DNA of 53,676 nt from Candidatus Magasanikbacteria bacterium RIFCSPLOWO2_12_FULL_43_12 (GTDB lineage: Bacteria; Patescibacteriota; Patescibacteriia; Magasanikbacterales; UBA922), in NCBI GenBank assembly GCA_001783065.1, contig MFQN01000007.1, positions 1-53,676 on the forward strand. The letters run 5' to 3'. Of the stretch, positions 268 to 49,847 are shown in pieces. Numbering within the stretch: position 1 is the first letter of the stretch; every line of letters starts with the position of its first letter. The notes beneath the pieces were generated by a model, which was not told where the DNA came from, did no database searches, and saw nothing but the letters and a program-made list of their open reading frames with translations. The translations under genes and the position numbers were made by a program.

Positions 268-1416
268 TCAATTTACAATTTTCAAAAAATTTATAATTTC
301 TTCCGCTCGTTTATCCCAGGTATAGTTCTGCGCCTTTAAATACGCTGTTTCGGCTTTTTTAGCGGCCACAGCCGGATTATCAAACGAGGATTTAATGCCT
401 TCGGCTAATGATTGTGAATCGTCTGGTTTGAAAAAAATCGCGATTTCTTCAGTCAAAATCTCCCGCAATGAGGGTAAATCCGAAGCGATAATCGGCCTGC
501 GGCTGGCCATATATTCAAAAAGCTTCAAGGGCGATGTGTAACGAGCGGATATTGTTGATTTGGCGCTGTTTGGCAAAACCAGTACGTCTGCCGCGCAGAG
601 GTATGCTGGTATTTCTCCAGCTGGACGATGACCAACAATCAATCCATTCTCCGCCTGATTGCTTTGCGCTTTCTTTCTAAAATTAGCAACGTCAACGTTT
701 GTCCCGCCCACAAATATCAACAAACACTCTGGCAACAATTTAGCCGCGCCCAACAAAGTATCGGCGCCCTTCCAATCATAGAGATGACCGGCGTATAAAA
801 CAATTCTCCTATTCAATGGCAGATTTAATCGCTTACGGCAGTAGATTTTAGAATCGCTAATGCTAAACACTTTTAAATCAACCGCGTCCGGCGCGACTAA
901 AATCCGTTCAGCGGAAAATCCCAAAGCGATAAAATCGTCTTTGAGACCACGCGTGATTACTGCTAAATTGTTAATTTTTTTCAACCAATGCCGGTAAAGC
1001 GCGTTCGGTCTTTTCGGCAAATTATGCGCCTCATACGTTATTCTATTATTTGGACCTAAAAAGGCGATATTGCCTAACTCGCGAGTATAAATTGATCCGG
1101 AAAAATCTTTCAAATGTTTTTTTACTGACCACGCAAAACTTAACGCTTCCACCCAATAAGCGATTCGTCCAAGCCATGCCGCGCGGCTGATTAAATCAAT
1201 GCAAGGTAACTTATTTAAAATAAAATTTTTCTTGATCCCGTAATAATTAAAAATATCGTCTTTTATTGAATTAAGACGGTTGGGCGCCATCAGCTCCACT
1301 TCTAAACCTTGTTCTGCCAAAGCTTCGCACATTTTTGCGACCTGAATACCATGCGCTTTTTCCGTCGGCAAGCGAATATTGGCAAGATAAATTATTTTCT
1401 CTCTAATCACGCTCAT
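268..1416 (-). CDS. glycosyltransferase, GT4-like (GT-B fold)
   Basis: 382-aa ORF. The C-terminal half has GHLYDWKGADTLL and SPLKLFEYMASRRPIIASD (an E-x7-E-type motif), typical of group-1 glycosyltransferases. It ends in TGA. Confidence 0.8.
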   Translation of the reverse strand: MSVIREKIIYLANIRLPTEKAHGIQVAKMCEALAEQGLEVELMAPNRLNSIKDDIFNYYGIKKNFILNKLPCIDLISRAAWLGRIAYWVEALSFAWSVKKHLKDFSGSIYTRELGNIAFLGPNNRITYEAHNLPKRPNALYRHWLKKINNLAVITRGLKDDFIALGFSAERILVAPDAVDLKVFSISDSKIYCRKRLNLPLNRRIVLYAGHLYDWKGADTLLGAAKLLPECLLIFVGGTNVDVANFRKKAQSNQAENGLIVGHRPAGEIPAYLCAADVLVLPNSAKSTISARYTSPLKLFEYMASRRPIIASDLPSLREILTEEIAIFFKPDDSQSLAEGIKSSFDNPAVAAKKAETAYLKAQNYTWDKRAEEIINFLKIVN

Positions 1417-9711: not shown

Positions 9712-10835
9712 AATTGGGAGCTAAAATAAGCCAATATTTTGCTTACCAAAGCATCTAAATCGTGATTCTGCCGCACATACTCAATCGCGGCCTGGTTGGG
9801 AATCTGTTTGATTATACCAGAATTGAAAATTTCTTCAATAGTTTTAGCCAATTCTAAATGATTACCCGCCGGAAAAGCATAAACCAAGCCCTTTTTTGCC
9901 AAATCCGCGTATGCTTCGCTGGAAGTAACCACGATTCTCCCGGCGGCCATCGCCTCCAACACAACTTTGTCCATACTGCCGGTGCGGCTGGTGTGGAGAA
10001 AGATATGGTGCTTTTGATATAAACGCGGCATTTCATTGTAGACAATCTTCTGATGAATAAAACCAGCTCCGGATTCCTTATTATTGATATTAAATTCGAC
10101 ACTCATCTTCTCAATTTTTTTATAATATTCCATATCTGGTCTAGTTATTGGTTCCCCAACAACAGACAAATGAACTGGCTGTGTTACCGTCTTTTTTAAA
10201 TTAGCAATAGCACAAATAGCTACTTCTGGATCTTTCGATAAAGTTACTCGCCCAATCCATAATAATGCGATTTCTCCAGGTTGTGGAGATGGCGACACAT
10301 TGTGGGGCGTCCATTGTTGTTTCGAAAACAAACCAACATCAATTCCATGTCCCACAGCCTCAACTTTTTTACTTCTTAAACGGAAACTTTCCTTTGAGGC
10401 GGTAAAAACTTTGTTCGCGAATAATACGCCTAAGCGCAAGCGTAAATTCACTGTCTTATGCGTGTACCAAAGTAAAACTTTTTTATGCCACAATCGCCAA
10501 AACACTCCGCCTAAAATACAATACTCCGGATTCATGTGAACGAAAACAGCATCATACTCTTTTCTGAATTTCCAAATATATTTATAGAAACGAAACAAAT
10601 ATTTTAATTGGCAAATAAATTTGATATTTGATATTTGATATTTGATATTTTTTCCCAAAGACAACACTTGCACATTATCTGGTAAATTATATTCTCCTTT
10701 CTCCAAACAAATGATAGTCAATTTTTCCACCTGGCCGGCCAAACGCAAAAGCCACTCGTGAAAAAATCCGAGATTAGAATCATTTTTATTTACTTTTTGG
10801 GTGATTACCAATAACTTCATATTTATTTCACACAA
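9708..10835 (-). CDS. glycosyltransferase, GT4-like
   Basis: 375 aa. It has C-terminal GSMDKVVLEAMAAGRIVVTS and contains an in-frame GATATTT x4 array (IKYQISNIKF). Confidence 0.7.
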   Translation of the reverse strand: MCEINMKLLVITQKVNKNDSNLGFFHEWLLRLAGQVEKLTIICLEKGEYNLPDNVQVLSLGKNIKYQISNIKFICQLKYLFRFYKYIWKFRKEYDAVFVHMNPEYCILGGVFWRLWHKKVLLWYTHKTVNLRLRLGVLFANKVFTASKESFRLRSKKVEAVGHGIDVGLFSKQQWTPHNVSPSPQPGEIALLWIGRVTLSKDPEVAICAIANLKKTVTQPVHLSVVGEPITRPDMEYYKKIEKMSVEFNINNKESGAGFIHQKIVYNEMPRLYQKHHIFLHTSRTGSMDKVVLEAMAAGRIVVTSSEAYADLAKKGLVYAFPAGNHLELAKTIEEIFNSGIIKQIPNQAAIEYVRQNHDLDALVSKILAYFSSQL

Positions 10836-11434: not shown

Positions 11435-12390
11435 ACATCTAACATCGCTTTAATCCACGCCTCTCTATCGCTGACGGGAATAATTTTTACTCTCTCGCTC
11501 GGCTTCAATTCATAATTCGCCACGCCGACGTCGTTCATAATCACTGGACATCCGGCCGCGTTCGCTTCCATCGCGACGAGACCATAACCTTCGCTTAAAC
11601 TTGGAAATAACAGACAGTCGGCGGTTTTAAGATAGCTGATTGGATCAGTTGTCCAAGGCTCTAATTGGATATTGGATATTGGATATTGGATATTAATTTC
11701 ATCTCTGCCACCGCCCACAATCAGCAACAAATAATTTTTTTGTTTAGTCACTTCTTTAAAAATTTCCACCAACCACTCAATATTTTTAACTGGATCAGGC
11801 CGGCCTAAAACCAAAAAGATTTTTGCATAACCCGGATATTTCTGGTGTAAATCAATCTTTGGCAGGTAATCCTTTATCTTTTCTGTATCAACCGCAATCG
11901 GCTTAACAAAAATTTTATCTTCTCTCACACCCAATTTGACCAAACTCTTTTTTATCCGCTCCCCCGCCACTCTTATCACCTCCGCGCGTCTAATAATAAA
12001 TTTAGCCAGACTTAATCTTATCCACTGCTTCTTATAATAATCGCCCAAAAAATCGCCATGCATCTGCACTTCCAATTTAATTTTAAACTTCCTTTTCAAA
12101 CACCAGCCTGCCAGACCGGTAAAAAACGGGTCTTGTGTCGTGATTAATTCAATTCCATCATACTCCTTTACTATTTTACTTCCTAATTTTATTAAACGAA
12201 AAAGCCGTTGTATTTTGTACCCGCCGGTTGATTGAACGTGGACGGTCAGACTCAAATCAAAAATGTTTTTTTCTTTATCCGGTATAATAATAAACAGCTC
12301 GTCTTTTTTCCCATACTCAACCATGCGTCTGGCGACGATAGAATCTGTATTCAAAATGTTTTTGTCAAGACTGATCATCAGCTGTGGCAT
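11431..12390 (-). CDS. glycosyltransferase, GT4-like
   Basis: 319 aa. It has PSLSEGYGLVAMEANAAGCPVI and contains an in-frame ATTGGAT x4 array (IQYPISNIQL). Confidence 0.7.
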   Translation of the reverse strand: MPQLMISLDKNILNTDSIVARRMVEYGKKDELFIIIPDKEKNIFDLSLTVHVQSTGGYKIQRLFRLIKLGSKIVKEYDGIELITTQDPFFTGLAGWCLKRKFKIKLEVQMHGDFLGDYYKKQWIRLSLAKFIIRRAEVIRVAGERIKKSLVKLGVREDKIFVKPIAVDTEKIKDYLPKIDLHQKYPGYAKIFLVLGRPDPVKNIEWLVEIFKEVTKQKNYLLLIVGGGRDEINIQYPISNIQLEPWTTDPISYLKTADCLLFPSLSEGYGLVAMEANAAGCPVIMNDVGVANYELKPSERVKIIPVSDREAWIKAMLDV

Positions 12391-13481: not shown

Positions 13482-14611
13482 AAACTTTCAAAAATATCTC
13501 GCATTTTACCAGCAATCAAATCCCAACTGTATTTTTCTTTAACCAATCTTCTGCCATTCGCAATCAATTTCTCTCTCAAATTTATATCTGTCAATATTTT
13601 TTTAATATTTTCGCTAATATTTTTTGGATTCCCGACGTCGCAAAACAATCCGGTCTCATTATTTTTCAAAAAATCAGGAATCCCGCCGACTCTCGTCCCG
13701 ACAATCGGCAAACCAGCCGCCATCGCTTCCAAAAATACATTGCCCAAACCTTCACTCAAACTTGGCCGGCAGAAGACATCGCTCGCCTGTAAATATGGCA
13801 ATAGCTCGTCATGATTTAAATGACCTAAAAAATGCACTCTGCCCGCTAATCCAATGTTGTTCACTAATAAAACTAATTTGTCCTTCAAAACTCCATCGCC
13901 GGCAATCAAAAGATGCGCGTTGCCGTCTAAATATTTCATCGCTTTTACCAAATCCCACACCCCGTTCTTCTTCACCAACCGTGATACTGTAATTACAATT
14001 TTATCATCTTTCTTAATACTCAGATTCTTTCTAACATTATCTCCTATCTCATATCTCTTATCTCCGATATCTTTAAACTTATCCACATCAACTCCATTAG
14101 GAATTACTTCAATATTATTTTTCGCACCCAAATCTCTCGCCCAATCCGCCAAATAACTGCTAATCGCCTGTATTTTATCCGCCTTTTTAAAAATCTGTTT
14201 AAAATACGGCCAGCACCACCAAACATGTTTGTAGATCTGCCACCGGCTGTCCCCCTCTTGCAGTGTGAGTAAAAACGGCATATTCATATTCTGCTTTTTA
14301 AAGCGCAATGCCGCGAAACCAGCATAACTCGCCATAATACCCCAAATCGCGTCAAAATGGCCTAATTTGGAGCTATAACGACCTCCCGGCGCTATCAGCC
14401 GATATTTATCCCAATGATTGCCGTTTCCCAAACGATGCACTTCAATATTACCGACTTTCTCCACATCAAGCAGATCCGAACGCAGCTTCGCGGTTATCAT
14501 TACAAACTCATAATCCGGCAATCTATCGGTTATCTCTTTCACTGCCACTTCCGCGCCGCCGACGAACGGAAAATACGCGGTGGAAAAAATCAAGATTCTT
14601 TTTTTTGGCAT
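13478..14611 (-). CDS. glycosyltransferase, GT4
   Basis: 377 aa. It has GGAEVAVKEI, VSRLVKKNGV and PSLSEGLGNVFLEAMAAGLPIVGT. Confidence 0.8.
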   Translation of the reverse strand: MPKKRILIFSTAYFPFVGGAEVAVKEITDRLPDYEFVMITAKLRSDLLDVEKVGNIEVHRLGNGNHWDKYRLIAPGGRYSSKLGHFDAIWGIMASYAGFAALRFKKQNMNMPFLLTLQEGDSRWQIYKHVWWCWPYFKQIFKKADKIQAISSYLADWARDLGAKNNIEVIPNGVDVDKFKDIGDKRYEIGDNVRKNLSIKKDDKIVITVSRLVKKNGVWDLVKAMKYLDGNAHLLIAGDGVLKDKLVLLVNNIGLAGRVHFLGHLNHDELLPYLQASDVFCRPSLSEGLGNVFLEAMAAGLPIVGTRVGGIPDFLKNNETGLFCDVGNPKNISENIKKILTDINLREKLIANGRRLVKEKYSWDLIAGKMRDIFESL

Positions 14612-17605: not shown

Positions 17606-18679
17606 CTAGAAACAAGACACTGTCGACGTGGCAAACGGCTGATTGTTTGGCTGGTTAGCCGCCAAAACCACATAAACCCCGATGCCGTTTTCCTGAACAG
17701 CATACATACAGAACTTGCCGACTGAAATGGTTGAGGAAGTGGACAAACCACCTGCTCCGACTGACAGTTGTCCGTAAGGCGTTGAAGACACAACGCCAAC
17801 TTTATTCGTGGTAGCATTTACGACCAAACTATCAGTGTCTATCGTAACTGTCCCAAAAACAGTCAAAGTGCCGGTTGCTGAAACATTTCCCGAAGAATCA
17901 ACACTGAAGTAGCCGGAATCATAGGTGTTTAAAACCTTATTAAGGTTGAAAGCGGTCCTGGAAAGTGTTGAGGTTGAATCAATGCCATTGGAGACTGTCA
18001 ATGTTCCCAATCTTCCTGTTACCGTAATATCATCATTCACCGCGTTGCCGAGAGTGACTGCGCCGTCTAGAGTGGTGGCGCCAACAGCCTTTAATGTGCC
18101 GGAAGCATTGACATTTCCCGAAGAATCAACACTGAAGTAGCCGGAATCATAGGTGTTAAGTACCTGATTAACATTAAGAGCAGTCCTGGAAAGTGTTGAG
18201 GTTGAATCAATGCCATTGGAGATTGTCAATGTTCCCAATCTTCCTGTTACCGTAATGTTATCATTCACCGCGTTGCCGAGTGTGACTGCGCCGTCTAGAG
18301 TGGTGGCGCCAACAGCCTTTAATGTGCCGGAAGCATTGACATTTCCCGAAGAATCAACACTGAAGTAACCGGAGTCATAAGTGTTAAGAACCTTATTAAG
18401 GTTGAAAGCAGTCCTGGAAAGTGTTGAGGTTGAATCAATGCCATTGGAGATTGTTAATGCTCCCAGTCTTCCACTAACAGTTATGTCATCATTCACCGCG
18501 TTGCCGAGTGTGACTGCGCCGTCTAAAGTGGTGGCGCCGGTAACGCCTAATGTTCCCCCGACTGATGTATTGTTGCCAACGCTGGTAGCGCCAAATACTA
18601 AAGCTGGCGCTAACACCAACCCTGCCACCACCAACAAGAGGCAAAACATTCTTCTTCTGTTGTACATAAAGTTGTACAT
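17606..18679 (-). CDS. secreted tandem-repeat protein (3 x 76 aa)
   Basis: 357 aa. It has a signal peptide (MFCLLLVVAGLVLAPALVFG) and three near-identical units: GATTLDGAVTLGNAVNDDITV(S/T)GRLG(A/T)LT(I/V)SNGIDSTSTLSRTA(F/L)N(L/V)N(K/Q)VLNTYDSGYFSVDSSGNV. Confidence 0.7.
   Translation of the reverse strand: MYNFMYNRRRMFCLLLVVAGLVLAPALVFGATSVGNNTSVGGTLGVTGATTLDGAVTLGNAVNDDITVSGRLGALTISNGIDSTSTLSRTAFNLNKVLNTYDSGYFSVDSSGNVNASGTLKAVGATTLDGAVTLGNAVNDNITVTGRLGTLTISNGIDSTSTLSRTALNVNQVLNTYDSGYFSVDSSGNVNASGTLKAVGATTLDGAVTLGNAVNDDITVTGRLGTLTVSNGIDSTSTLSRTAFNLNKVLNTYDSGYFSVDSSGNVSATGTLTVFGTVTIDTDSLVVNATTNKVGVVSSTPYGQLSVGAGGLSTSSTISVGKFCMYAVQENGIGVYVVLAANQPNNQPFATSTVSCF
17870..18560. repeat. tandem DNA repeat, about 228 bp x 3 (approximate bounds), inside CDS 17606-18679
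   Basis: The string GACATTTCCCGAAGAATCAACACTGAAGTA(G/A)CCGGA recurs near 18111 and 18339, and a close variant (AACATTTCCCGAAGAATCAACACTGAAGTAGCCGGA) near 17883. The spacing is 228 bp. Confidence 0.8.
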
Positions 18680-18910: not shown

Positions 18911-19006
18911 GTCATTGCGAGGAGCTCGCGCGACGAAGCAATCCAGCAATCGCATTAGAACGCGATAACGGTGTGGATTGCTTCGCCTGCGAAGGCTCGC
19001 AATGAC
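18911..19006. repeat. nested-palindrome element, copy A (GTCATTGCGAG...CTCGCAATGAC family)
   Basis: Outer inverted repeat GTCATTGCGAG / CTCGCAATGAC; inner inverted repeat GAAGCAATCC / GGATTGCTTC. It is intergenic, just upstream of the GT start at 19059. Confidence 0.85.
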
Positions 19007-28384: not shown

Positions 28385-28475
28385 GTCATTGCGAGCCTTC
28401 GCAGATGAAGCAATCCACACTCGTTAACCGTTGGCGACTGGATTGCTTCGTCGTCTGCAGACTCCTCGCAATGAC
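28385..28475. repeat. nested-palindrome element, copy B
   Basis: GTCATTGCGAG...GAAGCAATCC...GGATTGCTTCG...CTCGCAATGAC, lying between the sigma and anti-sigma-like genes. Confidence 0.85.
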
Positions 28476-29194: not shown

Positions 29195-29412
29195 TAAACG
29201 AGGAAAAAAGGCAAAAAAAAGATACTAATATACGGATAGAGTACTAATTATACTAATGAATACAAATAAGTGTTGGAGTTAATTAAATGTGGTTTACAAG
29301 TACTTAGTATACATTAGTATCATTGGTACCATTCGCATATTAGTATTTGTATACAACACTCTATACTTTCATAAAATATGGTTAGTTTTTTAGCTAATCT
29401 AAAACATAAAAA

Positions 29413-29892: not shown

Positions 29893-29996
29893 GTCATTGC
29901 GAGAAGGCCAACATTCATTGGCCGACGAAGCAATCTACGGCAATCGCTTGTGGTTATGATGGATTGCTTCGTCGTCTGCGGACTCCTCGCAATGAC
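29893..29996. repeat. nested-palindrome element, copy C
   Basis: GTCATTGCGAG...CGACGAAGCAATC...GGATTGCTTCGTCG...CTCGCAATGAC. It is intergenic. Confidence 0.85.
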
Positions 29997-30061: not shown

Positions 30062-31915
30062 ATGCGCTTCGTCCAAGAACATTTTACCACCCGCCACTTA
30101 TTCCACAAACCCCACAAATGGTTTCTGGCTTTTTTGCTGTCACCGATTCATTTTCTTGAACTGCATTATAAAAACAAATACCACCTTAATTTTCAACACG
30201 CCAAAAAACTTTTTGTGTTTGACATGGTTTTGCTGTTTACCGCTAGCCTGCTTTTTGCCGCAACAATTTTTTGGTTCACCTACAACCCGACTATCACGAA
30301 CCTGATTTTCTTGTCCATAGACACATCTTCTTCTGACACAAAAATTATCAGTGGCGATTTCATCACCTACACTATCGCCTATCAAAACAAAAGCAATATT
30401 AAAATCGTTTCTCCGTCATTAACAATCCGTCTACCCATAGGTTTCGTTATTGAGGCTATCGCGCCGAAAGAATCTTTCAACTCCGCGGAACGTAAATTCA
30501 CTCTTGCTGACTTGCATCCTCAACAACACGGCCAAGCGACTGTCAGTGGCTGGTTTTACGGCACGCCGGATGTTGAAAACAAAATTACCGCTATTTTAGA
30601 ATACACGCAGGAGGGCAAAGCCAGCAAAGAAGTCAAATCTACTCCCTTATTTCAATTCCATCGCGGATCGGTTTTAAAAATTGGAATTAACGCCCCGGAA
30701 AAATTTATCGCCACCGGCTCTGTTCCAATTAAAATAACCCTGACGAACACCGGCAAAAGAACGCTTAACGCGATTAACCTGCCGCTAACACTGTCCGCTG
30801 GTCTTTCTTTTGCAGATCCAAAAGTAGATAAAGGCGAGATCAAAAACAACCAATGGCAAATTACTGAACTCGGAATAAGTGAAAAAACTAATCTTTCGGC
30901 GATACTAAAGACTGTTTTACCGGAACAAATTAAAACCGCTGTATTAAAACTCACTCCATCATTAGAAATAAACGAAACAAAAATCGCCCAAAATACTGTT
31001 GAAAAAAACTTTCCGGTTTTACATCCGCAAGTTTCTATCCAATCATACTGGACAGATCAACTAACAAAAATCCAATCTGGGCAAACACTTGAGCTCAACT
31101 TATCCCTCGTCAACAATGGCGATATTGATTTAAATAATTTAGAAATAACTCTACCGATCCAAAATGAAATTATTAACACTGACAAGCTGATAAATTTAAA
31201 CACTGGCAGTTATAAAAATAAAATTTTGACTATCCATTCCAAACATGACGCCGGACTATTAACTTTGGCGAAAAACCAAACAAAAAATTTGAAGATAAAA
31301 ATTCCGATTCTTGAATCGCCGAATGTTGGCGCTGATTTGGTTCTAAAAATTAAGCCTGAATTAAAAGCTGACATCAGCGACTTGACCGGTGTCGTTTACA
31401 AAACCGAAACTTCCGCTCCGGAAATCAAAATCGGCACGCGATTGGATTTAACCGGCGAGGTTCGTTATTACACTGTTGACGGCGACCAGCTTGGCCGCGG
31501 CCCGCTCCCGCCTCAAGTCGGTAAAGAAACAAAATATTGGACGTTGTTAAAAATTACCAACACCACGAGTAAAGTAACTGACTTAATATTAACCGGCGAG
31601 CTTCCTGATCATGTCGCTTGGACCGGCAAAAACAGTGTGAGCCGTGGTAGTAGTGTTATATTTAACGAAAAAACAAAAATGATTTCGTGGTCACTCAACT
31701 CCCTATCACCACAACAAACTGTTGGCATCTATTTTGAATTAGCCCTTACACCAACCGCCGAACAAACCGGAACCGCGCCGATTATTTTACAAAATGTTCA
31801 GCTCCGAGCGACGGATGATTTTATTAAAGAAAAAATCACTGACACTCTGCCGGATTTTGATGTGTCTTTGGTGAAAGATAAGATTGGGAGGGAGAAGGGG
31901 GTGGAAGTAGAGTGA
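30062..31915 (+). CDS. membrane-anchored protein with DUF11-like beta-sandwich repeats
   Basis: 617 aa. It has a TM segment (MVLLFTASLLFAATIFWF) and repeated modules of the type GD.ITYTI.Y.N.S...V....L...LP.G. The true start may lie downstream. Confidence 0.55.
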   Translation: MRFVQEHFTTRHLFHKPHKWFLAFLLSPIHFLELHYKNKYHLNFQHAKKLFVFDMVLLFTASLLFAATIFWFTYNPTITNLIFLSIDTSSSDTKIISGDFITYTIAYQNKSNIKIVSPSLTIRLPIGFVIEAIAPKESFNSAERKFTLADLHPQQHGQATVSGWFYGTPDVENKITAILEYTQEGKASKEVKSTPLFQFHRGSVLKIGINAPEKFIATGSVPIKITLTNTGKRTLNAINLPLTLSAGLSFADPKVDKGEIKNNQWQITELGISEKTNLSAILKTVLPEQIKTAVLKLTPSLEINETKIAQNTVEKNFPVLHPQVSIQSYWTDQLTKIQSGQTLELNLSLVNNGDIDLNNLEITLPIQNEIINTDKLINLNTGSYKNKILTIHSKHDAGLLTLAKNQTKNLKIKIPILESPNVGADLVLKIKPELKADISDLTGVVYKTETSAPEIKIGTRLDLTGEVRYYTVDGDQLGRGPLPPQVGKETKYWTLLKITNTTSKVTDLILTGELPDHVAWTGKNSVSRGSSVIFNEKTKMISWSLNSLSPQQTVGIYFELALTPTAEQTGTAPIILQNVQLRATDDFIKEKITDTLPDFDVSLVKDKIGREKGVEVE

Positions 31916-32021
31916 AGAGATAGGAGATAAGAGATAAGAGATAAAAATATTTAACATCAGAGGATATTAGTATCCCTTAGTATTATTAGTAAATTAGTAT
32001 ATTGGTATGTTTAACTACCCC

Positions 32022-35128: not shown

Positions 35129-35203
35129 GCCGCCATCGTCTAGTGGTTAGGACACGAGGTTTTCAACCTTGTAACAGGGGTTCGATTCCCCTTGGCGGTA
35201 CCA
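35129..35203 (+). tRNA. tRNA-Glu (anticodon UUC) with encoded CCA
   Basis: Hand-folded cloverleaf. Acceptor GCCGCCA/TGGCGGT, D arm GTCT..GGAC, anticodon stem CGAGG/CCTTG with loop TTTTCAA (anticodon TTC), T arm AGGGG-TTCGATT-CCCCT, discriminator A, then CCA. Confidence 0.9.
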
Positions 35204-35246: not shown

Positions 35247-36350
35247 ATGCTCATTCTCGGCATTGAATCTTCATGCGATGATACTTCAGTCGCGCTGGTT
35301 GACGCTTCTACGCGCGGCTTTAAAATACTGGCGGAAAAAACCGCCAGCCAAATTGAAATACACAAAAAATACGGCGGGGTGGTGCCGGAAATAGCGGGGA
35401 GAATGCATGCGGAAAAAATCTTACCCCTGATTGAAGAAGCGGCGGCTAAACAACCAAAACCAGATATAATTGCCGTAACATCCGGACCGGGATTGATTAC
35501 CGGGTTGATGGTTGGAGTTGAGGCGGCGAAAACATTGTCTTATTTGTGGAATGTGCCGGTGGTTGGAGTGAATCATATTGAAGGACATATCCATTCCGTA
35601 GAAATTTTCAATTTTCAATTTTCAATTTTCAAAATTAAATATCCTGCGATAGCGTTGATTGCGAGCGGAGGGCATACGGAGTTGATTTTAATTAAAAAAC
35701 GCGGACAATACAAAAAAATCGGCGCGACGCTGGATGACGCGGCCGGGGAGTGTTTTGACAAAGTCGCAAAATTGTTAGGTTTTGATTATCCCGGCGGACC
35801 AAAAATTTCTAAATTCGCGGAAACAGGAAACCCTGATGCTATAAAATTTCCACGACCGATGCTGGATAAAAACAATTTTGATTTTAGTTTCGCTGGACTA
35901 AAAACCTCCGCGCTGTATTGGCTTCGCGACCATACCGTCATTGCGAGGAGGAGCCGAAGCGACGACGAAGCAATCCAATCATCAAATGACACTGGATCGC
36001 CGCGTCGCTACGCTCCTCGCGATGACTTATCCGTCAACGACTTCTGCGCTTCTTTTGAACAAGCCATCATTGATGTCCTCGTCGGTAAAACTCTGAAAGC
36101 TGTTGAAAAATACAAACCCAAAACCATAATATTAGGAGGTGGGGTGGCGGCAAACAAAAAATTGAGGGAGACACTCTCAAGCGCAATCAAACAACGTTCT
36201 CAAATATCCAATCTCAAATATCCAATCTCCAACTACTGTATGGACAACGCCGCCATGATCGCTGTCGCCGGATATTATCACGCAATAAAAAAAGGCTTCA
36301 CGCCGTGGCAGAAATTAAAAGCTGATCCGGAATGGGAGATAGCCCACTAA
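35247..36350 (+). CDS. tsaD: tRNA N6-adenosine threonylcarbamoyltransferase
   Basis: 367 aa. It has MLILGIESSCDDTSVALV, GVNHIEGHI, ASGGHTELI, GGPKISKFA and CMDNAAMIA. Three repeat-derived in-frame insertions are present (see findings). Confidence 0.9.
   Translation: MLILGIESSCDDTSVALVDASTRGFKILAEKTASQIEIHKKYGGVVPEIAGRMHAEKILPLIEEAAAKQPKPDIIAVTSGPGLITGLMVGVEAAKTLSYLWNVPVVGVNHIEGHIHSVEIFNFQFSIFKIKYPAIALIASGGHTELILIKKRGQYKKIGATLDDAAGECFDKVAKLLGFDYPGGPKISKFAETGNPDAIKFPRPMLDKNNFDFSFAGLKTSALYWLRDHTVIARRSRSDDEAIQSSNDTGSPRRYAPRDDLSVNDFCASFEQAIIDVLVGKTLKAVEKYKPKTIILGGGVAANKKLRETLSSAIKQRSQISNLKYPISNYCMDNAAMIAVAGYYHAIKKGFTPWQKLKADPEWEIAH
35603..35636. repeat. AATTTTC x4 heptamer array inside tsaD
   Basis: AATTTTCAATTTTCAATTTTCAATTTTCAAAATT encodes (E)IFNFQFSIFKI between the HxxxH-type metal motif and the SGGHT motif. 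Confidence 0.85.
35937..36026. repeat. nested-palindrome element, copy D (90 bp, in frame inside tsaD; right inner arm degraded)
   Basis: GTCATTGCGAGGAGGAGCCGAAGCGACGACGAAGCAATCC...CTCGCGATGAC is translated as VIARRSRSDDEAIQSSNDTGSPRRYAPRDD. Confidence 0.8.
36199..36230. repeat. CTCAAATATCCAAT x2 (plus a partial unit) array inside tsaD
   Basis: It encodes SQISNLKYPISN just before the conserved CMDNAAMIA. Confidence 0.75.
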
Positions 36351-36379
36351 TTTGACGACCACTAATAGACACTAATACT

Positions 36380-37321
36380 ATGCCGTTAAAAATCATCAGC
36401 GGGTCAAGCCACAGAGAATTTACAAAAAAAATCTGCGCGCATCTTGGTATTGAAAAAACAAAAATAACTTCCAAAATCTTCAGCAACGAAAACAGGTTCG
36501 TGACAATTGACGAAGCGGTGCGCGGCGATGATGTGTTTGTGATTCAAACCCAAGCCACGCCGGTTGATTCCAACATTATAGAATTGCTGATTTTAATCCG
36601 CACATTGCGCGACGCTTCGGCCGGACGAATTACCGCGGTAATGCCCTACTTTCCTTATGCCCGTTCTGATAAAAAAGACCAGCCCAGAGTTTGCATCGCG
36701 GCGCGTTTGCTGGCGGATATGATAGAAAAAGCCGGCGCTGACCGGATTTTAACCATGGAATTGCACTCGCCGCAAATTCAGGGATTTTTCTCCGTTCCTT
36801 GCGACCATCTGCTCGCCGCGCCGGACATTATTAAATTTCTAAAACAAAATTGGGATTTAACAAACTGTGTTTTAGTCGCCGGCGACTCCGGAGCGGTAAA
36901 AATGATAAAACCTTATGTTGATTATTTGAATTTACCCACCGCGATTATGGACAAACGCCGAGAAGGCAATGATGAAACAGTAAGAATAAAAGGCGTTATC
37001 GGCGAGGTAAAAAATAAAAATGTTCTACTGCTGGATGATGAAACAACCAGCGGCGGCACGTTAGTGGAAAACGCCGAATATCTGACCAAACAAGCCGGCG
37101 CGTTGAGAGTTGACGCCTGTTTTATTCATCCGACTTTTAACGACAAAGGCGTGGAAAAATTAAATAATTCGCCAATCCAAAAATTCCTGTTTACCGATAC
37201 CATCCCGCTGAACAGCAAACCGATTAAAAACTACGAAATAATTTCTGTGGCAGAAAGATTCGCGGAAATGATAAAAAGAATTCATGATAACGAAAGCGTT
37301 AAATCATTAAATGATGTCTAA
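36380..37321 (+). CDS. prs: ribose-phosphate pyrophosphokinase
   Basis: 313 aa. It has PYFPYARSDKK and DLHSPQIQGFF-like (MELHSPQIQGFF) motifs, plus the PRPP loop LLLDDETTSGGTL. Confidence 0.9.
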   Translation: MPLKIISGSSHREFTKKICAHLGIEKTKITSKIFSNENRFVTIDEAVRGDDVFVIQTQATPVDSNIIELLILIRTLRDASAGRITAVMPYFPYARSDKKDQPRVCIAARLLADMIEKAGADRILTMELHSPQIQGFFSVPCDHLLAAPDIIKFLKQNWDLTNCVLVAGDSGAVKMIKPYVDYLNLPTAIMDKRREGNDETVRIKGVIGEVKNKNVLLLDDETTSGGTLVENAEYLTKQAGALRVDACFIHPTFNDKGVEKLNNSPIQKFLFTDTIPLNSKPIKNYEIISVAERFAEMIKRIHDNESVKSLNDV

Positions 37322-37412: not shown

Positions 37413-38414
37413 TTAGTTCGCTAAAATTTTCTGCTTCAGCGCGAAACAATTACCGTGCTTCACTAATCCTAAATAAGAACGCAAAGTTCCTTCAGTCGGG
37501 TGAATTTTTATTCTCGCAAACATTCTATTTTTTGTTTTTGTACGCAGGACACGGTGGTCATTAAACAATACCCAACCAAGAAAATCCATACCAGAAGCAA
37601 TGGTTTTAATAAATAGTTTGTTTGGATGGAGTACGAGCGAAAGCTCGTCTCGCAAAAAATCTCTAATTTTTGGTATTAATTCTTCCAACCATTGTTTGTT
37701 GTGAGACAAAAACACAAAATCATCCGCATAGCGAATGTAATATCTTGCTTTTAATTTGTGTTTGATAAATTGATCAAGTTTGTTTAAGTAAATATTGGCA
37801 AAGAGTTGAGAGGTTAAATTGCCAAGTGGGAGGCCGTGTCTGTCATTGCGAGGAGTGAGGAACGAGCGACGAAGCAATCCAGTGTCGATTGGCGACTGGA
37901 TTGCTTCGCTCCCGTTGGTCGCTCGCAATGACGGATTGTTGCCTTTGTTTGAATAACTTTCAATCACCTCCTCCAATAATAAAATAATATTTCTGTCCGG
38001 AATATATTGTCTAAGAATATTTTTGAGAATATTATGGTCAATACTATCAAAAAACTTTTTAATATCGCATTTTAGTATCCAACAAGTACGAGTATGATTT
38101 TGACTAACTGCAAAAGCAAAAGAACGAAAATGATTTATTGCTCTATGCGTGCCTTTGTCTATACGGCAAGAATAAGAATCACCAATAAATGTTTTGTCAA
38201 AAAATGGGTAAAGTATTCTATAAACAGCATGGTGTAAAAGACGATCTCTGACCGAGGCCTTGTGAATGTGCCGACGTTTGGGGTCGTTGACGAAAAAACT
38301 TTCGTAACCACCGTGACTATAAGTAAAATTTGCCAAATCTTGATAAAGTGCTACAATGTTATCCATCAAGTCACGGGAGAATAATTGGACATCAGTTTTC
38401 TTTTTCTTGCCCAC
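37413..38414 (-). CDS. DGR-type reverse transcriptase (GTG start as annotated; N-terminus probably truncated; carries a 91-bp repeat insertion in frame)
   Basis: 333 aa. It has DRLLHHAVYRIL (motif 1/2 region), LKCDIKKFFDSIDH (motif 3), GLPLGNLTSQLFANIYLN (the DGR-specific [LIV]GxxxSQ motif 4) and YIRYADDFVF (YxDD). Confidence 0.85.
   Translation of the reverse strand: MGKKKKTDVQLFSRDLMDNIVALYQDLANFTYSHGGYESFFVNDPKRRHIHKASVRDRLLHHAVYRILYPFFDKTFIGDSYSCRIDKGTHRAINHFRSFAFAVSQNHTRTCWILKCDIKKFFDSIDHNILKNILRQYIPDRNIILLLEEVIESYSNKGNNPSLRATNGSEAIQSPIDTGLLRRSFLTPRNDRHGLPLGNLTSQLFANIYLNKLDQFIKHKLKARYYIRYADDFVFLSHNKQWLEELIPKIRDFLRDELSLVLHPNKLFIKTIASGMDFLGWVLFNDHRVLRTKTKNRMFARIKIHPTEGTLRSYLGLVKHGNCFALKQKILAN
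37842..37932. repeat. nested-palindrome element, copy E (in frame inside the RT gene)
   Basis: GTCATTGCGAGGAGTGAGGAACGAGCGACGAAGCAATCCAG...CTGGATTGCTTCGCT...GCTCGCAATGAC. On the minus strand it is translated as SLRATNGSEAIQSPIDTGLLRRSFLTPRND, immediately N-terminal to GLPLGNLTSQ. Confidence 0.85.
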
Positions 38415-38480
38415 AATAAAATCCTCTCAGGCCAATAACAAATTTTCTAAACCAAATTTTTCTGGTGGAGAATGAAAAAA

Positions 38481-38601
38481 CTGGCGGACGACGGCGAACG
38501 AGCAGTGCCCGTTCCAGACGCACTCGGCGGAGTCCAAGTAGAGCTTGCGGACGCCACCATTGCCGTTGACGTAAGGCACGAGACCGCGCCACACAGAACC
38601 G
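38481..38601 (-). repeat. DGR repeat in the template-repeat (TR) position, 66 bp upstream of the RT ORF
   Basis: 103/121 identical to 38965-39085 by hand alignment without gaps. It lies in no credible gene; only a 68-aa GTG-started ORF covers it. Confidence 0.65.
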
Positions 38602-38715
38602 TCACAAAATATACAAAACAGCGCCAATGCCACTGCCCCTAGAATACTCTCGGGGCTGAACCGAATTCGGAGACGTTATCTCCATACTGCTTTGTACCAA
38701 GTATTTTCATTTTTA

Positions 38716-38734
38716 ATCCTGATTAAATCAGGAT
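38716..38734 (-). other. 8-bp hairpin in the VR-TR spacer
   Basis: ATCCTGAT-TAA-ATCAGGAT. Confidence 0.5.
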
Positions 38735-38832
38735 AAAATTCAACCGCCCGAAGCCGTGTTCACTTCTTCAGCAAACAAAACCGCGGACTGTAGCGTTGAC
38801 TATCTACACTCTATTTTATCATAAAAAGAGGA

Positions 38833-38855
38833 ACCGTGCACTTCTGGTGCACGGT
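38833..38855 (-). terminator. hairpin / likely rho-independent terminator downstream of the DGR target gene
   Basis: 9-bp stem ACCGTGCAC / GTGCACGGT with loop TTCTG. On the minus strand it is followed by TTCCTCTTTTTATGAT. Confidence 0.6.
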
Positions 38856-38922
38856 ATCGGGCCGCTCCGTCGTGTGACGGAGGGATGGGAGAGAAAAGAG
38901 CGAAATCAGTGGGATAGGCCGC

Positions 38923-38947
38923 CGGACACCCGAGAACCGAGTGTCCG
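38923..38947 (-). promoter_or_regulatory. GC-rich hairpin 15-39 nt downstream of the target gene's stop codon (VR 3' end)
   Basis: CGGACAC-N11-GTGTCCG. Its position is analogous to the hairpin/cruciform that assists mutagenic homing in the Bordetella phage DGR. Confidence 0.45.
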
Positions 38948-38961
38948 AGCGACCAAGAAAC

Positions 38962-39606
38962 CTACTTGCGGACGACGGCGAACAAGCAGTGCTCGTCCCA
39001 GTCGTTCTCGGCGGAGAGCAGGTCGAGCTCGCGGCGGCCACCATCGCCGAGGACGTAAGGCACGAGAGCGCGCCACACAGAACCGAGGGCGAACACCAGA
39101 CAGTCCTTGTGCTTGTCAGGATTCTTGAGCCACCACCACAGCAACTCAACCAGAGTCGCCGAGCGATAGCCCTGCGAGTCAATGTAATCCTTGACTTCCT
39201 GCGTGGGCATCGTAGACCGGCCGAGCTCACGGAGCTTCTGCTTGATGGAGAGTGTCTCCACATGCTTCTGATCCAGATCGCCGCCATCGTACGGAAAATT
39301 CTTGCTGTTGATGTCCGAATTGCGGAACGAAACAAATCCGCACGCCGAAATCATCATTTCCAAGAACTTGTCCCACCAGTTGGCAGGAGCAGGGGCCGAC
39401 GTCGTCGGCTCCTGTCCAGCGATCAGCGCGGCCATCTTCTTGACCGTTTTGCGTCCATCCGGCTTGACCAGCTGGTGAAGACGCTCGTTGATAGCTTCCT
39501 CGTTGTCGCCGAGCAAATCCTTGAGCTCCTCCAAGAGCGCGCCGATCACAGACACAAGCCACCCGAGAACCTTCACGATCATGAACACGTTCTTCGCCTT
39601 TGGCAT
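38962..39606 (-). CDS. DGR target (variable) protein, membrane-anchored/secreted, with a C-terminal ligand-binding module carrying the VR
   Basis: The track ORF extends to 39642. The likely start is MPKAKNVFMIV (ATG at 39606) with GGAGGT 5 nt upstream. There is a hydrophobic N-terminus, GYRSATLVELLWWW is DUF1566/CLec-like, and the last 40 codons are the VR. Confidence 0.75.
   Translation of the reverse strand: MPKAKNVFMIVKVLGWLVSVIGALLEELKDLLGDNEEAINERLHQLVKPDGRKTVKKMAALIAGQEPTTSAPAPANWWDKFLEMMISACGFVSFRNSDINSKNFPYDGGDLDQKHVETLSIKQKLRELGRSTMPTQEVKDYIDSQGYRSATLVELLWWWLKNPDKHKDCLVFALGSVWRALVPYVLGDGGRRELDLLSAENDWDEHCLFAVVRK
38965..39085 (-). repeat. DGR variable repeat (VR), the last 40 sense codons of the target gene
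   Basis: It pairs with 38481-38601. The 18 mismatches all fall at codon positions 1 or 2. Confidence 0.7.
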
Positions 39607-39841
39607 GACGCACCTCCAACTTTTGGCTTGCCACTCACACAAAACACCATGTTCCGCGCCCCAGGCTTGCCAACCAAGGCCGAGATAACTCCCAGCCTTC
39701 TTTCTAACTTATTGCTAAAATAAGCCAAAAAGAAAGCTGGAAAAAATTATTTTTTTATAAGGAACTAACAAAGTATTGTACTACATTTTTAGAATCTTGT
39801 CAAGATACCTCCTTGTGCGCAATATTATAAAAGAACACCAA

Positions 39842-44342: not shown

Positions 44343-44455
44343 GTCATTGCGAGGAGGAGCTCGCGCGATCCCTCTCATTCACTCGGGACAGGCTCCGCAA
44401 TCCAGTCGCCAATTGACGATGGATTGCTTCGCTCCCTTGGGTCGCTCGCAATGAC
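44343..44455. repeat. nested-palindrome element, copy F (longest, 113 bp)
   Basis: CTGTCATTGCGAGGAGGAGCTCGCGCG...GGATTGCTTCGCTCC...GCTCGCAATGACAG. It is intergenic between mtnP and apt. Confidence 0.85.
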
Positions 44456-45015: not shown

Positions 45016-45076
45016 AAATAAAATCCCCTGTCAAGAGGGACTTTATGACTTTACAAACTTTAAGGACTTTATAGAC

Positions 45077-45403
45077 TCACTTCTTCTTTTTCTTCTCTCC
45101 CCTCTCTTCCAACTTGTTCGCCAATTTATTGACCACGAACTTTTCCACCAAATTCGCCACCATGGTGCTCACCACTCCCATACTGCTGGAAAGGCCGTCA
45201 ACTTTTTTACGGATAAATTCCACCGCGTCGGTAATCAGCTCTAATTTTTGCGTTAAATTTTCTATAATCCGATTGGCATTGCGCAAAACCCGCGCGGCTT
45301 GATACAGCAGCCAACACAAAAATACCGTGAACCACAAAATACTAAACGCGGAAACGATGTATAAAAGATCTGAACTTGTTTCTAACATATTTCCTCCGTT
45401 CAC
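45077..45403 (-). CDS. small membrane-anchored coiled-coil protein, function unknown
   Basis: 108 aa. It has one TM segment (LLYIVSAFSILWFTVFLCWLLY) and a Lys-rich tail. Confidence 0.45.
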   Translation of the reverse strand: MNGGNMLETSSDLLYIVSAFSILWFTVFLCWLLYQAARVLRNANRIIENLTQKLELITDAVEFIRKKVDGLSSSMGVVSTMVANLVEKFVVNKLANKLEERGEKKKKK

Positions 45404-45468: not shown

Positions 45469-47967
45469 TTATAACACACATCGCACTTCTGCTTCAAACT
45501 TCTTCTTTAACACTTCGCCTACTTTCGCGTGCGCCGCGTCAACTTCCGCGGATTCAAGCGTTCGATCATCCGAACGATAAGTGATGTGATACGCTAAACT
45601 TTTTTTACCCGCCGGTAAATTCTTGCCTTCATAAACATCAAACAATTCCACGCCGACAATTAACCTATCAATTTTTTTAAGCTCAAAAACAATCCGCGCG
45701 TGTTCAATTTTTTTATCAACCATAAAAGCGATGTCGCGGACGACAGACGGATATTGAGATATTTTGTGATATTGGATATTATCGTTAACCAACGAAAGCA
45801 GTTTGTCTAAATCCAATTCGGCAACAGCAACTCGCGAATCCACACCCAAACGTTCGGAAAACGACGGACTAATTTCGGTAATCGCGCCTATGCCTTCGCC
45901 ACTTACTAAAATTTGCGCCTGCCTGCCCCTGTGGATAACTTTGCCCAGCTCATGCGTCGCAGGCTTAAATTCAGCCGCACAGCCCAAACGTTCAAATACA
46001 CCCGCTAAAGCATTGGAAAGCTCATAAAAAGGCGTTAAAACGCCCTTGCCGGCAAAAACCAGACCTAAATACAACGGCTGACCGGGCAGAAGCTCATCGC
46101 TGTTACCGGAAACTCGCAGTCCTGAAATCTCGGAATTAAATACTTTGCCGATTTCAAACATCTTTACCTCGTCAAAACGATGCAAATTCATTTCCGCGTT
46201 TTCCAGCAAGCCCGGCCACAAACTGCGGCGCAAAAACGGACGGTCTTCGGCTACCGGATTATCTAACTCTATTAAACCAGCGGAGTCAATGCCCAATCTC
46301 TCCAATAACTGCGGCGACACGAAAGAATAATTATAAACTTCGCTAAAACCAAATTCCAGCGCCAAAATTTCTTTTATTGTTCTTTCTAATGCCAGTAGCT
46401 CGTTTTTGGACGGAGGGACAATCGGAAACTTTGGCAAAGATGCGGGGATATTGCCATAACCATAAACCCGCGCCACTTCCTCAATTAGATCCTCGGCGAT
46501 GGAAATATCTTTAGTCGCGCGCCAAGTCGGAATTTTAACTAACAGAACGCCCTTCTTTTCTTTAACTTCAAAACCTAAATTGGCTAAAATTTTAATTGCT
46601 TCTTTTTTATCTATTTCCACCCCGATTTTTTTATGTAAAAACTCCAGCGGCAACTCAATCGGCCCTTGCTGAAGATGAAAATCTTTCACATCAACTATTT
46701 TGCTCGCGATTTTGGCTCCCGGACACAGTTCCAGTGTCAGCTCAATCGCTTTTCGCATGGCCAGTTCGCAATTATTAGGATCCAAACTTTTCTCAAACCG
46801 CGCCGAGCTGTCAGTGCGCAAACCAAGCCGAGTTGATGTCTTGCGAATGGACGAGGCATCAAAATTCGCCGATTCATAAATTATGGCTGTTGTCTCATTA
46901 CCAATCCCGCTTTCCAGCCCGCCAATCACCCCGGCTAAGGCAATCGCTTTTTCTTTATTGGCAATCACCAAATTCTCACTTTTCAACTCATACTCAATAC
47001 CATCCAAAGTCGTAAACTTCTCTCCATCCTTCGCTCGCCTCACCGTAATCTCTGACTTTACAGACTTTATGGACTTTAGGACTTTGGACTCATCAAACGC
47101 ATGCATCGGTTGTCCCAAATCCAACATTATATAATTTGTAATATCCACTATATTGTTAATCGGCCGCAGACCAACTGCCAGCAATTTTTTCTGCAGCCAA
47201 TCCGGCGATGACGCGATTTTTATCCCATCAATCGCCACCGCCATATATCGCGGGCACAGCTTTTTATCCTCAACATCAATTTGTAATTTATAATTTTGAA
47301 TTTGTTTGTTTCTTGTATCTTGTTTCTTTGTTTTTTTAATTGGATACGCTATGAGCGCTTTTTTGAACAGCGCGGCAACTTCTCTCGCCATTCCATAATG
47401 CCCCCACAAATCCGGCCTGTTGGACAAACTCTTGTTGTCAATTTCAAAAATGACGTCGTCCATGCCCAGCACCTTCGCCAATTCGTAGCCTAATTTCCAA
47501 TTTCCAATATCCAATATCTCGCTCAGGTCTAATATCTCTTTCTCTTCTTTCAATGGGAACCTGTCGCCCAACCCAATCTCGGTTGACGCGCAAATCATGC
47601 CAAATGATTCCACGCCGCGAATTTTTGCCTTCGCCAATACAACCAATTCGCCTTCCCCATGCCAGCGCACTTTCGCGCCAATTCTGCCAAATGCAACTTT
47701 CATCCCCTCTTTCACATTTGAACCGCCGCAAACCACCTGCCAATCCTGCGCGCCGTCATTAACTGTGCAAACTTTTAATTTATCGGCGTCAGGATGTTTG
47801 ACAACTTTTTTTACCAAACCGACAACGATGCTTTTCAAATCTTTCCCCTGTCGTTCAACTTTTTCTACTTCAACTGTAGACAATTTTAACTTTTCCGCAA
47901 TCTCTTCAGGCGTAGTAGAACTTGGCAAACCAGTATATTGTTTTAACCAGTTGAAAGAAATTAACAT
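45469..47967 (-). CDS. pheT: phenylalanine--tRNA ligase beta subunit
   Basis: 832 aa. It has MLISFNWLKQY, a tRNA-binding domain (VCTVNDGAQDWQVVCGGSNV), and B3/4, B5 and FDX-ACB regions. Several simple-repeat-derived segments are present. Confidence 0.9.
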   Translation of the reverse strand: MLISFNWLKQYTGLPSSTTPEEIAEKLKLSTVEVEKVERQGKDLKSIVVGLVKKVVKHPDADKLKVCTVNDGAQDWQVVCGGSNVKEGMKVAFGRIGAKVRWHGEGELVVLAKAKIRGVESFGMICASTEIGLGDRFPLKEEKEILDLSEILDIGNWKLGYELAKVLGMDDVIFEIDNKSLSNRPDLWGHYGMAREVAALFKKALIAYPIKKTKKQDTRNKQIQNYKLQIDVEDKKLCPRYMAVAIDGIKIASSPDWLQKKLLAVGLRPINNIVDITNYIMLDLGQPMHAFDESKVLKSIKSVKSEITVRRAKDGEKFTTLDGIEYELKSENLVIANKEKAIALAGVIGGLESGIGNETTAIIYESANFDASSIRKTSTRLGLRTDSSARFEKSLDPNNCELAMRKAIELTLELCPGAKIASKIVDVKDFHLQQGPIELPLEFLHKKIGVEIDKKEAIKILANLGFEVKEKKGVLLVKIPTWRATKDISIAEDLIEEVARVYGYGNIPASLPKFPIVPPSKNELLALERTIKEILALEFGFSEVYNYSFVSPQLLERLGIDSAGLIELDNPVAEDRPFLRRSLWPGLLENAEMNLHRFDEVKMFEIGKVFNSEISGLRVSGNSDELLPGQPLYLGLVFAGKGVLTPFYELSNALAGVFERLGCAAEFKPATHELGKVIHRGRQAQILVSGEGIGAITEISPSFSERLGVDSRVAVAELDLDKLLSLVNDNIQYHKISQYPSVVRDIAFMVDKKIEHARIVFELKKIDRLIVGVELFDVYEGKNLPAGKKSLAYHITYRSDDRTLESAEVDAAHAKVGEVLKKKFEAEVRCVL

Positions 47968-49072: not shown

Positions 49073-49137
49073 AAAGATACTAATTTTTAGGTTGAAAGCT
49101 ATCCTTTGTTTTTACCTTTTTCTTTCGCCCTTTCTCT

Positions 49138-49799: not shown

Positions 49800-49847
49800 A
49801 TTAGTATCCATTAGTATCATTAGTACTCTATTAGTATATTAGTAATA

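Follow-up and report, generated by a model that had tools for sequence, protein, structure and literature searches.

The tsaD gene

We analysed a 53,676-nt contig stretch (MFQN01000007.1, the whole of which is hereafter the window) of an uncultured groundwater bacterium of the Candidate Phyla Radiation (CPR)/Patescibacteria, in which a tsaD open reading frame (ORF) of 367 aa, at 35247..36350 on the + strand, contains three segments made of repeat DNA: a heptamer tract (site 1), a palindromic element (site 2) and a second heptamer array (site 3). A preliminary description of the same stretch had considered them as three independent in-frame insertions, tolerated as surface-loop additions, in a protein that is normally highly conserved. 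The ORF was characterised by the TIGR03723 profile, by the ratio of nonsynonymous to synonymous substitution rates (dN/dS) and by a predicted structure, and it was compared with a clade set of 119 TsaD homologues, all of which were collected as full-length predicted proteins.

The ORF product matched TIGR03723, the TsaD equivalog profile, with 372.8 bits (cutoff 296.1) over profile positions 1-312 of 314. All the columns that are invariant in the alignment of the 119 homologues are present in it, in agreement with the preliminary description, which had found the conserved TsaD motifs intact. These columns include the metal ligands H110, H114 and D333 (the HxxxH motif and the Asp of the C/MDNA motif) and the residues G80-P81-G82, S140-G141-H143 and D163-D164-G167-E168 of the GPG, SGGH and DDAAGE motifs, respectively. 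With respect to three relatives (L001, L002 and L003), the dN/dS of tsaD was 0.09-0.16. The AlphaFold model, for which the 119-sequence alignment was used as input, had a mean predicted local distance difference test (pLDDT) of 90.7 and a predicted template modelling score (pTM) of 0.88. In a Foldseek comparison it reached template modelling (TM) scores of 0.91-0.94, normalised by target length, against the YgjD/TsaD structures 3zet_B, 6z81, 4wq5 and 4ydu, and the predicted fold is the ASKHA-type TsaD/Kae1 fold. We consider the product, as judged from its sequence, a real TsaD under purifying selection, with a predicted catalytic activity.

The L001 contig, which was assembled independently (ENA), has the same tsaD with the same three segments, and positions 35606-36600 of the window are covered by single metagenome contigs in three runs; those of two runs match without any difference, and that of the third has six. 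A separate observation concerns the start of the gene. The window and the L001 contig, 96% identical to each other, differ in 39 codon columns, all of them in the first 108 tsaD alignment columns, and by a 12-nt indel (window 35247-35570, L001 995-1330), and their tsaD genes are identical from about nt 330 through the stop codon; this pattern looks like either a strain recombination mosaic or a chimeric assembly.

The palindromic element at site 2

Site 2 is an in-frame palindromic element of 90 nt (35937..36026, + strand), recognised by its fold, its family and the structural model, that encodes VIARRSRSDDEAIQSSNDTGSPRRYAPRDD (aa 231-260). The nested palindrome has a folding energy of -48.8 kcal/mol (z = -6.2), which none of 200 shuffled sequences reached. 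The model places the 30 additional aa in the loop that follows helix α7 and connects helices 216-228 and 263-289; residues 234-256 have a pLDDT < 50 and the remainder of the model is confident and unchanged, so that the predicted structure is compatible with a surface-loop placement of the element. At this position the window TsaD has 34 residues and T. maritima TsaD has 5; among the 119 homologues the length of the loop goes from 6 to 85 aa, with 19 sequences having just 6-10 aa.

According to the register of the T. maritima alignment, the element starts two residues past helix α7. In T. maritima TsaD this helix (Ala210-Glu223) sits on the D-stem of the tRNA, which it contacts through the FSFSGLK motif at its beginning (PMC13276492). 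The 30 residues of the insert include 6 Arg, 5 Asp and 1 Glu, with a net charge of approximately zero, and they are most likely translated as a disordered loop rich in Arg, Asp and Ser. Among the three segments, site 2 is the sole clear-cut insertion.

The heptamer arrays at sites 1 and 3

Site 1 (35603..35632, + strand) is an (AATTTTC)4.3 array, 100% perfect according to Tandem Repeats Finder (TRF), that encodes most of the 13-aa loop EIFNFQFSIFKIK (aa 119-131), which joins the metal-binding HxxxH helix to the strand leading toward the SGGH turn that lines the A37 pocket. The spacing between the anchors V118 and Y132 goes from 7 to 53 aa among the 119 homologues, with a median of 14; it is 13 in the window, a length found also in ten relatives, hence we consider site 1 as an old and shared loop extension. 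It amounts to about 5 aa both with respect to the shortest loops (7-8 aa) and with respect to T. maritima. Between the window and P0008 (L127) there is no indel at this site: seven substitutions in 39 nt separate the two-unit tract of P0008 from the perfect 4.3-unit tract of the window. In L002 and L003 the same loop is encoded by heptamer arrays of other units (AATATCA, AATATCC, AGAAACA). Site 1 thus seems to be a heptamer microsatellite in a hypervariable loop, with an extension common to a subclade, in which the window has simply the most perfect repeat, and not the lineage-specific insertion that had been proposed.

Site 3 (36198..36229, + strand) is a (TCTCAAATATCCAA)2.3 array, also 100% perfect by TRF, that encodes SQISNLKYPIS, within aa 318-329, over a segment of native length. 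Precisely, 96 of the 119 homologues, window included, have a spacing of 19 aa from the anchor L310 to the anchor Y330, and the segment is just 2 aa longer than in T. maritima TsaD. In L002, L003 and L126 a segment of the same length is encoded by other heptamer units (CATATTC, TATCTCY and ATATCYA). The model has a predicted β-strand at 322-324, a few residues before D333, and the mean pLDDT of the 10-residue blocks of the segment is 87-90. The native length and the predicted strand indicate that the repeat DNA overlays here a structurally required segment, whose length did not change. Site 3 is not an insertion.

The three repeats and their peptides, as given in the preliminary description, were reproduced by TRF, translation and folding. 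Of the three in-frame insertions proposed there, the one at site 2 (+30 aa) stands; the other two are discounted, since site 3 has its native length and site 1 is as long as in ten homologues. A location in tolerant surface loops is supported for site 2, on account of the low pLDDT, and for site 1, which falls in a variable loop, and is contradicted at site 3 by the strand.

The palindromic element family in the window

The core motif of the element, GACGAAGCAATCCA, was counted over the whole window at <=2 mismatches, with 11 occurrences versus 0.47 expected, and its terminal motif, GTCATTGCGAGGAG, had 8 occurrences versus 0.31 expected. The family consists of six copies in 53.7 kb, 90-114 nt in length, four of which are intergenic and two genic. 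In all six the ends GTCATTGCGAG…CTCGCAATGAC and the inner arms GAAGCAATCC…GGATTGCTTC are conserved and the loops vary (the right end can be rendered also as CTCGCRATGAC). The terminal inverted repeats are 11-14 nt long (GTCATTGCGAG(GAG)/CTCGCAATGAC), and the element is small and has no coding capacity of its own. The window copies all fold at -46 to -53 kcal/mol (n = 6).

The intergenic copies, to which no strand was assigned, were identified by motifs and fold at 18911..19006 (-50.6 kcal/mol), 28385..28475 and 29893..29996. The fourth, at 44343..44455, was identified by terminal motif and fold; its left core is replaced and it lies directly after the PNP gene. In L002 the space downstream from PNP is of 65 nt, which is too short for a full copy.

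The second genic copy (37842..37932, - strand) is in frame in an ORF encoding a reverse transcriptase (RT) of the type found in diversity-generating retroelements (DGRs), where it encodes SLRATNGSEAIQSPIDTGLLRRSFLTPRND. This copy was delimited by a break in the alignment of the RT ORF (37413..38414, - strand) with bRT 8ub7_A, between query aa 131 and 190, which falls exactly around the element and corresponds to about 37 extra residues. The tsaD and RT copies have a common reading frame over the conserved arms (EAIQ…TG..RR…PR[ND]D). Each palindromic copy has just 1-3 of its 6 frames open, and the genic copies of tsaD, of the RT and of L124, L125 and L126 have no stops in the frame of the host gene. 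No clear difference in hairpin strength was found between genic (-37 to -47 kcal/mol) and intergenic (-46 to -53 kcal/mol) copies, which are few; one genic copy of a sister family folds at -38 kcal/mol.

The RT ORF, whose best solved relative is bRT 8ub7_A, is part of a compact DGR at 37413-39642, with a template repeat (TR) at 38480-38601 and a variable repeat (VR) at 38964-39085, both of 122 nt and 85% identical to each other. The target ORF (38962..39642, - strand), which has no Pfam match, carries the VR at its 3′ end. Because few of the TR/VR mismatches (6 of 18) are on TR adenines, the DGR may be decaying. In L003 a bAvd gene is found in the place syntenic to this region.

Heptamer tracts in the window and in related loci

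Six perfect period-7 tracts were found in the window, and none of period 4, 5, 6, 8 or 10-13. Perfect period-7 tracts occur with a density of 10-11 per 100 kb in the CPR loci, versus 1.4 per 100 kb for the non-CPR loci (850 kb), and there are essentially no tracts of the neighbouring periods that are not multiples of 3 in the loci compared. The arrays draw on a limited set of units (AATTTTC, AATATCA, AATATCC, AATCTCA, TATCTCC), and, three units being 21 nt, an array is read in all three frames and produces a peptide with a 7-aa period (for example NFQFSIF and NIQYPIS).

Outside tsaD, TRF found three of these arrays on the - strand in GT4 glycosyltransferase ORFs: (ATTTGAT)4.6 at 10619..10650, encoding KNIKYQISNIKF, (ATTGGAT)4.4 at 11664..11694, encoding NIQYPISNIQL, and a TATCTCC-like array at 14038..14073, encoding KDIGDKRYEIGDN. 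A further three are in pheT, also on the - strand (47278-47296, 47306-47333 and 47492-47518, hence over 47278..47518), where the heptamer arrays account for 4-5 aa more than in the solved PheT structure 2rhs_B. The idea of tsaD as a special case is thus not tenable, as the two repeat classes are found also in the RT, pheT and GT4 genes.

A 9-nt tandem repeat, GACTTTAYR, was observed too, x3.7 at 47054-47085 and x4.4 at 45039-45077; the array internal to pheT corresponds to about 6 aa more than in 2rhs_B (KVLKSIKSVKS), and the other one is intergenic. Two heptamer arrays are placed exactly at gene 3′ ends, at 249-285 and 31915-31944. AATTTTC, read as its reverse complement, includes a TGA, and the first of them encloses the stop codon of ORF 268..1416 (- strand); the first base of the second coincides with the final stop-codon base of ORF 30062..31915. 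A heptamer tract can thus determine the C-terminus of a protein besides the length of its loops.

The synonymous sites between the window and L002 or L003 are saturated (dS 1.2-1.5), from which we infer that the perfect heptamer arrays must be either young or continually homogenised; both their units and their lengths differ among L002, L003 and the window. Four metagenome runs, from groundwater and soil, gave a word depth of 7,800-53,100 for the AATTTTC tract and 290-610 for the palindrome; it was about 5-15 for the 3′ half of tsaD, a baseline at which also site 3 was found. These depths indicate that repeats of the AATTTTC type and palindromic repeats are both abundant across the community. 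The contigs of the four runs break in the AATTTTC tract, so that the population copy number is not countable there.

Comparison of the TsaD loops across the clade

Peptides derived from palindromic elements were searched among the 119 homologues by pattern, those for site 2 being VIAR…PRND, VIPT…EESL…RDDK and VILS…AQNDK, and they were found in 19 of them at site 2 and in 9 at site 1, with at least two further carriers missed by the site 2 patterns. About a quarter of the TsaDs of the clade have such a peptide in one of the two loops. On a neighbour-joining TsaD tree, obtained from 271 conserved columns, the carriers are scattered, and Fitch parsimony on the insertion states required no fewer than 16 changes for site 2 and no fewer than 8 for site 1.

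In their DNA, both L124 and L125 bear the palindromic family of the window at site 2, inserted at points that differ by one codon, and in L126 the family of the window occupies site 1 and site 2 holds a sister family (GTCATTCCGAC…CTCGGGATGAC). Site 2 is occupied by a decayed sister-family copy in L002 and by (GTGATAC)3 in L003, and in L127 it is a clean empty site, AATAAACTTGAAAACATTAAT. There is, hence, a presence/absence polymorphism at orthologous sites, among genomes that are distant from each other (dS above 1). The copies of the window and of L125 have three derived changes of the right arm in common (GGATCGCCRCG, CTCGCGATGAC).

From these comparisons, the two TsaD loops appear to be hypervariable in this CPR clade and to have been occupied many times by different repeat elements. 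This removes the contrast, drawn at first, between independent oddities and a normally highly conserved protein: the loops that hold sites 1 and 2 span 7-53 and 6-85 aa in the clade. The presence or absence in relatives, which had been indicated as a check, turned out to be variable for site 2, which is empty in L127; at site 3 the 19-aa length is common to 96 of 119 sequences.

Proposed explanation and its alternatives

With a probability of roughly 80%, we consider this tsaD as a functional gene that was colonised by selfish palindromic repeats and by slippage-prone heptamer microsatellites, filtered to the copies that are in frame and free of stops. [quoted passage not shown] One copy would have landed in the TsaD loop after helix α7, where it would have survived because it is 90 nt long, its frame is stop-free and the loop tolerates extra residues. 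The heptamer tracts would grow, shrink and become homogenised via replication slippage, their presumed generator; as 7 is not divisible by 3, an ORF would retain only those changes after which its total length is still divisible by 3. Purifying selection would then leave just the in-frame, stop-free copies at permissive positions, and the site 2 insert would be presumably neutral. The observations on which this explanation is built are the membership of the element in a family, its frame, the loop positions, the purifying selection on the gene and the recurrence in the clade.

Several points weigh against this explanation. By inspection of the flanks of the six copies, no common direct repeat was found that could represent a target-site duplication, and no transposase or RAYT-like gene was found among the window ORFs, so that the mobility of the element, like its mechanism, is presumed. 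The homologues are all full-length ORFs, in which frame-breaking insertions are invisible, hence the rule that insertions are always in frame is partly an effect of ascertainment. The derived changes common to the window and L125 could come from an older shared insertion or from selection on the peptide, which weakens the independence of this pair. The contigs of the four metagenome runs contain no empty site 2 allele and give, therefore, no direct sign of recent movement at tsaD. Moreover, as site 2 comes directly after a tRNA-contacting helix, the neutrality of the insert is an assumption, and no RNA runs holding the tsaD locus were found.

Among the alternatives, an adaptive role of the loops is unlikely. 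According to it, the Arg-rich site 2 and the variable site 1 would modulate the binding of tRNA, TsaB or TsaE, or would replace a partner lost from the reduced genomes of CPR, and the hypervariability would reflect selection. The start of the insert two residues after the D-stem-binding helix α7 (PMC13276492) and its 6 Arg in 30 residues are in line with such a role, as is the fact that the derived changes of the window and of L125 yield an identical peptide, GSPRR.APRDD. In fact, this loop can hold functional sequence, given that a conserved 28-aa segment is found at site 2 in 45 of the 119 homologues. However, the same element is read in the same frame in an unrelated RT and is present in four intergenic places, and the carriers of the clade, scattered on the tree, hold at site 2 unrelated families, heptamers or nothing. 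The insert is, besides, predicted to be disordered, and its 6 Arg are balanced by 5 Asp and 1 Glu, for a net charge of about zero.

We consider as very unlikely that the palindrome is removed, either from the RNA, by an excision and ligation that the hairpin directs, or through bypassing by the ribosome, in which case mature TsaD would lack it and its frame would be coincidental. The hairpin in the coding sequence is very stable (about -47 to -48.8 kcal/mol) and not weaker than those of the intergenic copies, and the conservation of the arms across phyla would fit their recognition by a conserved factor; moreover, GC-rich palindromic inserts are subject to translational bypassing in yeast mitochondria. 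Nevertheless, both genic copies of the window and all the 28 classified insertions of the homologues are in frame and stop-free (a count that is biased by ascertainment), although just 1-3 of 6 frames are open per copy; no known bacterial mechanism fits, and the element has no Rfam match.

A pseudogene or an artefact of contig mis-joining at repeats, to which the breaks of the Logan contigs of four runs within the AATTTTC tract and the confinement of the window/L001 differences to the first 107 codons of tsaD (a possible chimeric join) might point, is rejected as having a negligible probability, because the ORF is uninterrupted, has all the invariant residues, is constrained (dN/dS 0.09-0.16) and gives a confident, TsaD-like predicted model, the independent L001 assembly has identical segments, single contigs from three runs span 35606-36600, and the 30-nt tract is shorter than a read.

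Comparison with known repeat systems

The in-frame insertion of Rickettsia palindromic elements (RPEs) into housekeeping genes was described by Ogata et al. 2000 (summarised in PMC10969869); there, the element is translated into an additional peptide. The family of the window is similar to RPEs in being a multi-copy palindrome of about 100 nt, both intergenic and in frame in unrelated genes, at positions compatible with the fold, and in including several families. In particular, the features of RPEs that are found here are the multi-copy palindrome with intergenic and genic copies, the host frame kept without stops and the loop position. The differences are in the sequence family, presumably another one, in the host, which belongs to the CPR and not to Rickettsiales, in the length (90-115 nt here, about 150 nt for RPEs), in the presence of the arms in many phyla and in the translation, which here is predicted from the frame. 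The likeness is drawn from the organisation; the pattern of the element does occur in metagenome-assembled genomes (MAGs) of Rickettsiales/Tisiphia. By this analogy, RPEs are the closest counterpart, and what we observe would be their CPR equivalent, genome- and clade-wide.

In-frame fusions are produced also by bacterial MITEs, as for Coxiella QMITE1 and the Anabaena MITEs (PMC10969869, PMC5896051). As MITEs, the element is small, non-coding and multi-copy, with terminal inverted repeats, a hairpin and occasional in-frame intragenic copies; unlike them, it has no target-site duplication that could be seen and no parent insertion sequence or transposase within the window, both of which are needed for a strict MITE assignment. 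REP sequences and bacterial interspersed mosaic elements (BIMEs) are mobilised by REP-associated tyrosine transposases (RAYTs), REPs being 20-40 nt long with GTAG or CGTC heads (PMC3733652). The element resembles them as an imperfect palindrome with conserved ends, abundant and mostly extragenic, and falls outside their definition, having a length of 70-135 nt, the head GTCATTGCGAG and no RAYT gene in the window.

As for the heptamers, an excess of heptameric simple sequence repeats (SSRs) was reported in some bacteria, e.g. the short tandemly repeated repetitive (STRR) sequences of cyanobacteria (PMC4692102). What the two have in common is an excess, specific to a lineage, of short tandem arrays whose unit is 7 nt. 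Most STRRs lie between genes; here, unlike STRRs, many arrays are inside essential ORFs, in all three frames, with AT-rich units (AATTTTC, AATATCC) that we take to be different from those of STRRs. With the SSRs of contingency loci the heptamers have in common that they are coding, slippage-prone repeats with a unit that is not a multiple of 3, in which a change of one unit shifts the frame; unlike contingency loci, the genes are essential housekeeping ones (tsaD, pheT), in which an OFF state would be harmful.

Distribution in other genomes and implications

The pattern GTCATTGCGAG..GAAGCAATC..GATTGCTTC..CTCGCAATGAC, with a length of 70-135 nt, was searched in the GTDB species genomes (loci L004-L123), where at least 120 stretches matched it, with near-identical arms across phyla. 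Among the matches listed there are isolates of Bradyrhizobium, Sphingomonas, Pedobacter and Nostoc and MAGs of Chloroflexi, Ignavibacteriota, Zixibacteria, Rickettsiales/Tisiphia, Coxiellaceae and Patescibacteria. Three stem pairs near the loop have compensatory changes (CG to UA, AU to CG and GC to UA). Only loop-proximal pairs were considered in this regard, because the arms are fixed by the search pattern and are hence uninformative on covariation.

In Rfam, a search of the whole window at gathering thresholds and permissive searches of two copies returned just the tRNA-Glu and a chance microRNA match (E = 0.78). In the literature, the exact terminal and arm strings matched unrelated primers or nothing, and nothing specific was found on CPR in combination with repeats, heptamers or MITEs. 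Thus a palindromic family with near-identical arms across phyla has no description that we found in Rfam or in the searchable literature. It is conceivable, although doubtful, that the GTCATTGCGAG…GAAGCAATCC…GGATTGCTTC…CTCGCAATGAC hairpin is a single, horizontally spreading pan-bacterial family and that, together with the CPR heptamer process, it systematically supplies essential proteins with new loops, some of which, e.g. the Arg-rich one next to α7, may have been co-opted.

Although the genomes of CPR are of small size and streamlined, essential genes such as tsaD and pheT carry in their coding frame selfish repeats and 7-nt microsatellites prone to frameshifts, which suggests a strong mutational input that selection only filters. 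The clade provides, moreover, a natural map of the permissive TsaD loops, which tolerate 7-53 and 6-85 aa, respectively. It is also a warning for annotation: in CPR proteins, repeat DNA is often the origin of variable length and of peptides labelled "low-complexity" or "hypothetical".

Other features of the window

The 911-aa ORF at 32222-34957, rich in Cys, Asp and Thr and with long internal repeats, is immediately upstream from the tRNA-Glu(ttc) gene (35129-35203) and tsaD; the syntenic gene of L003 matches Dicty_CTDC. At 17883-18538 a 228-nt unit is repeated x2.9, with 92% identity, in an ORF (17606..18679, - strand) without a Pfam match, adjoining the glycosyltransferase cluster.

The octamer ATTAGTAT was found 11 times in the window versus 1.4 expected, and 10 of the 11 occurrences are intergenic and mostly clustered. 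Its sites at 29222-29346, 31966-32000, 49077-49084 and 49800-49837 are near the starts or ends of genes (a sigma-factor gene, pheS and an M50 protease gene), and the octamer may be considered as a candidate promoter or regulator-binding motif.

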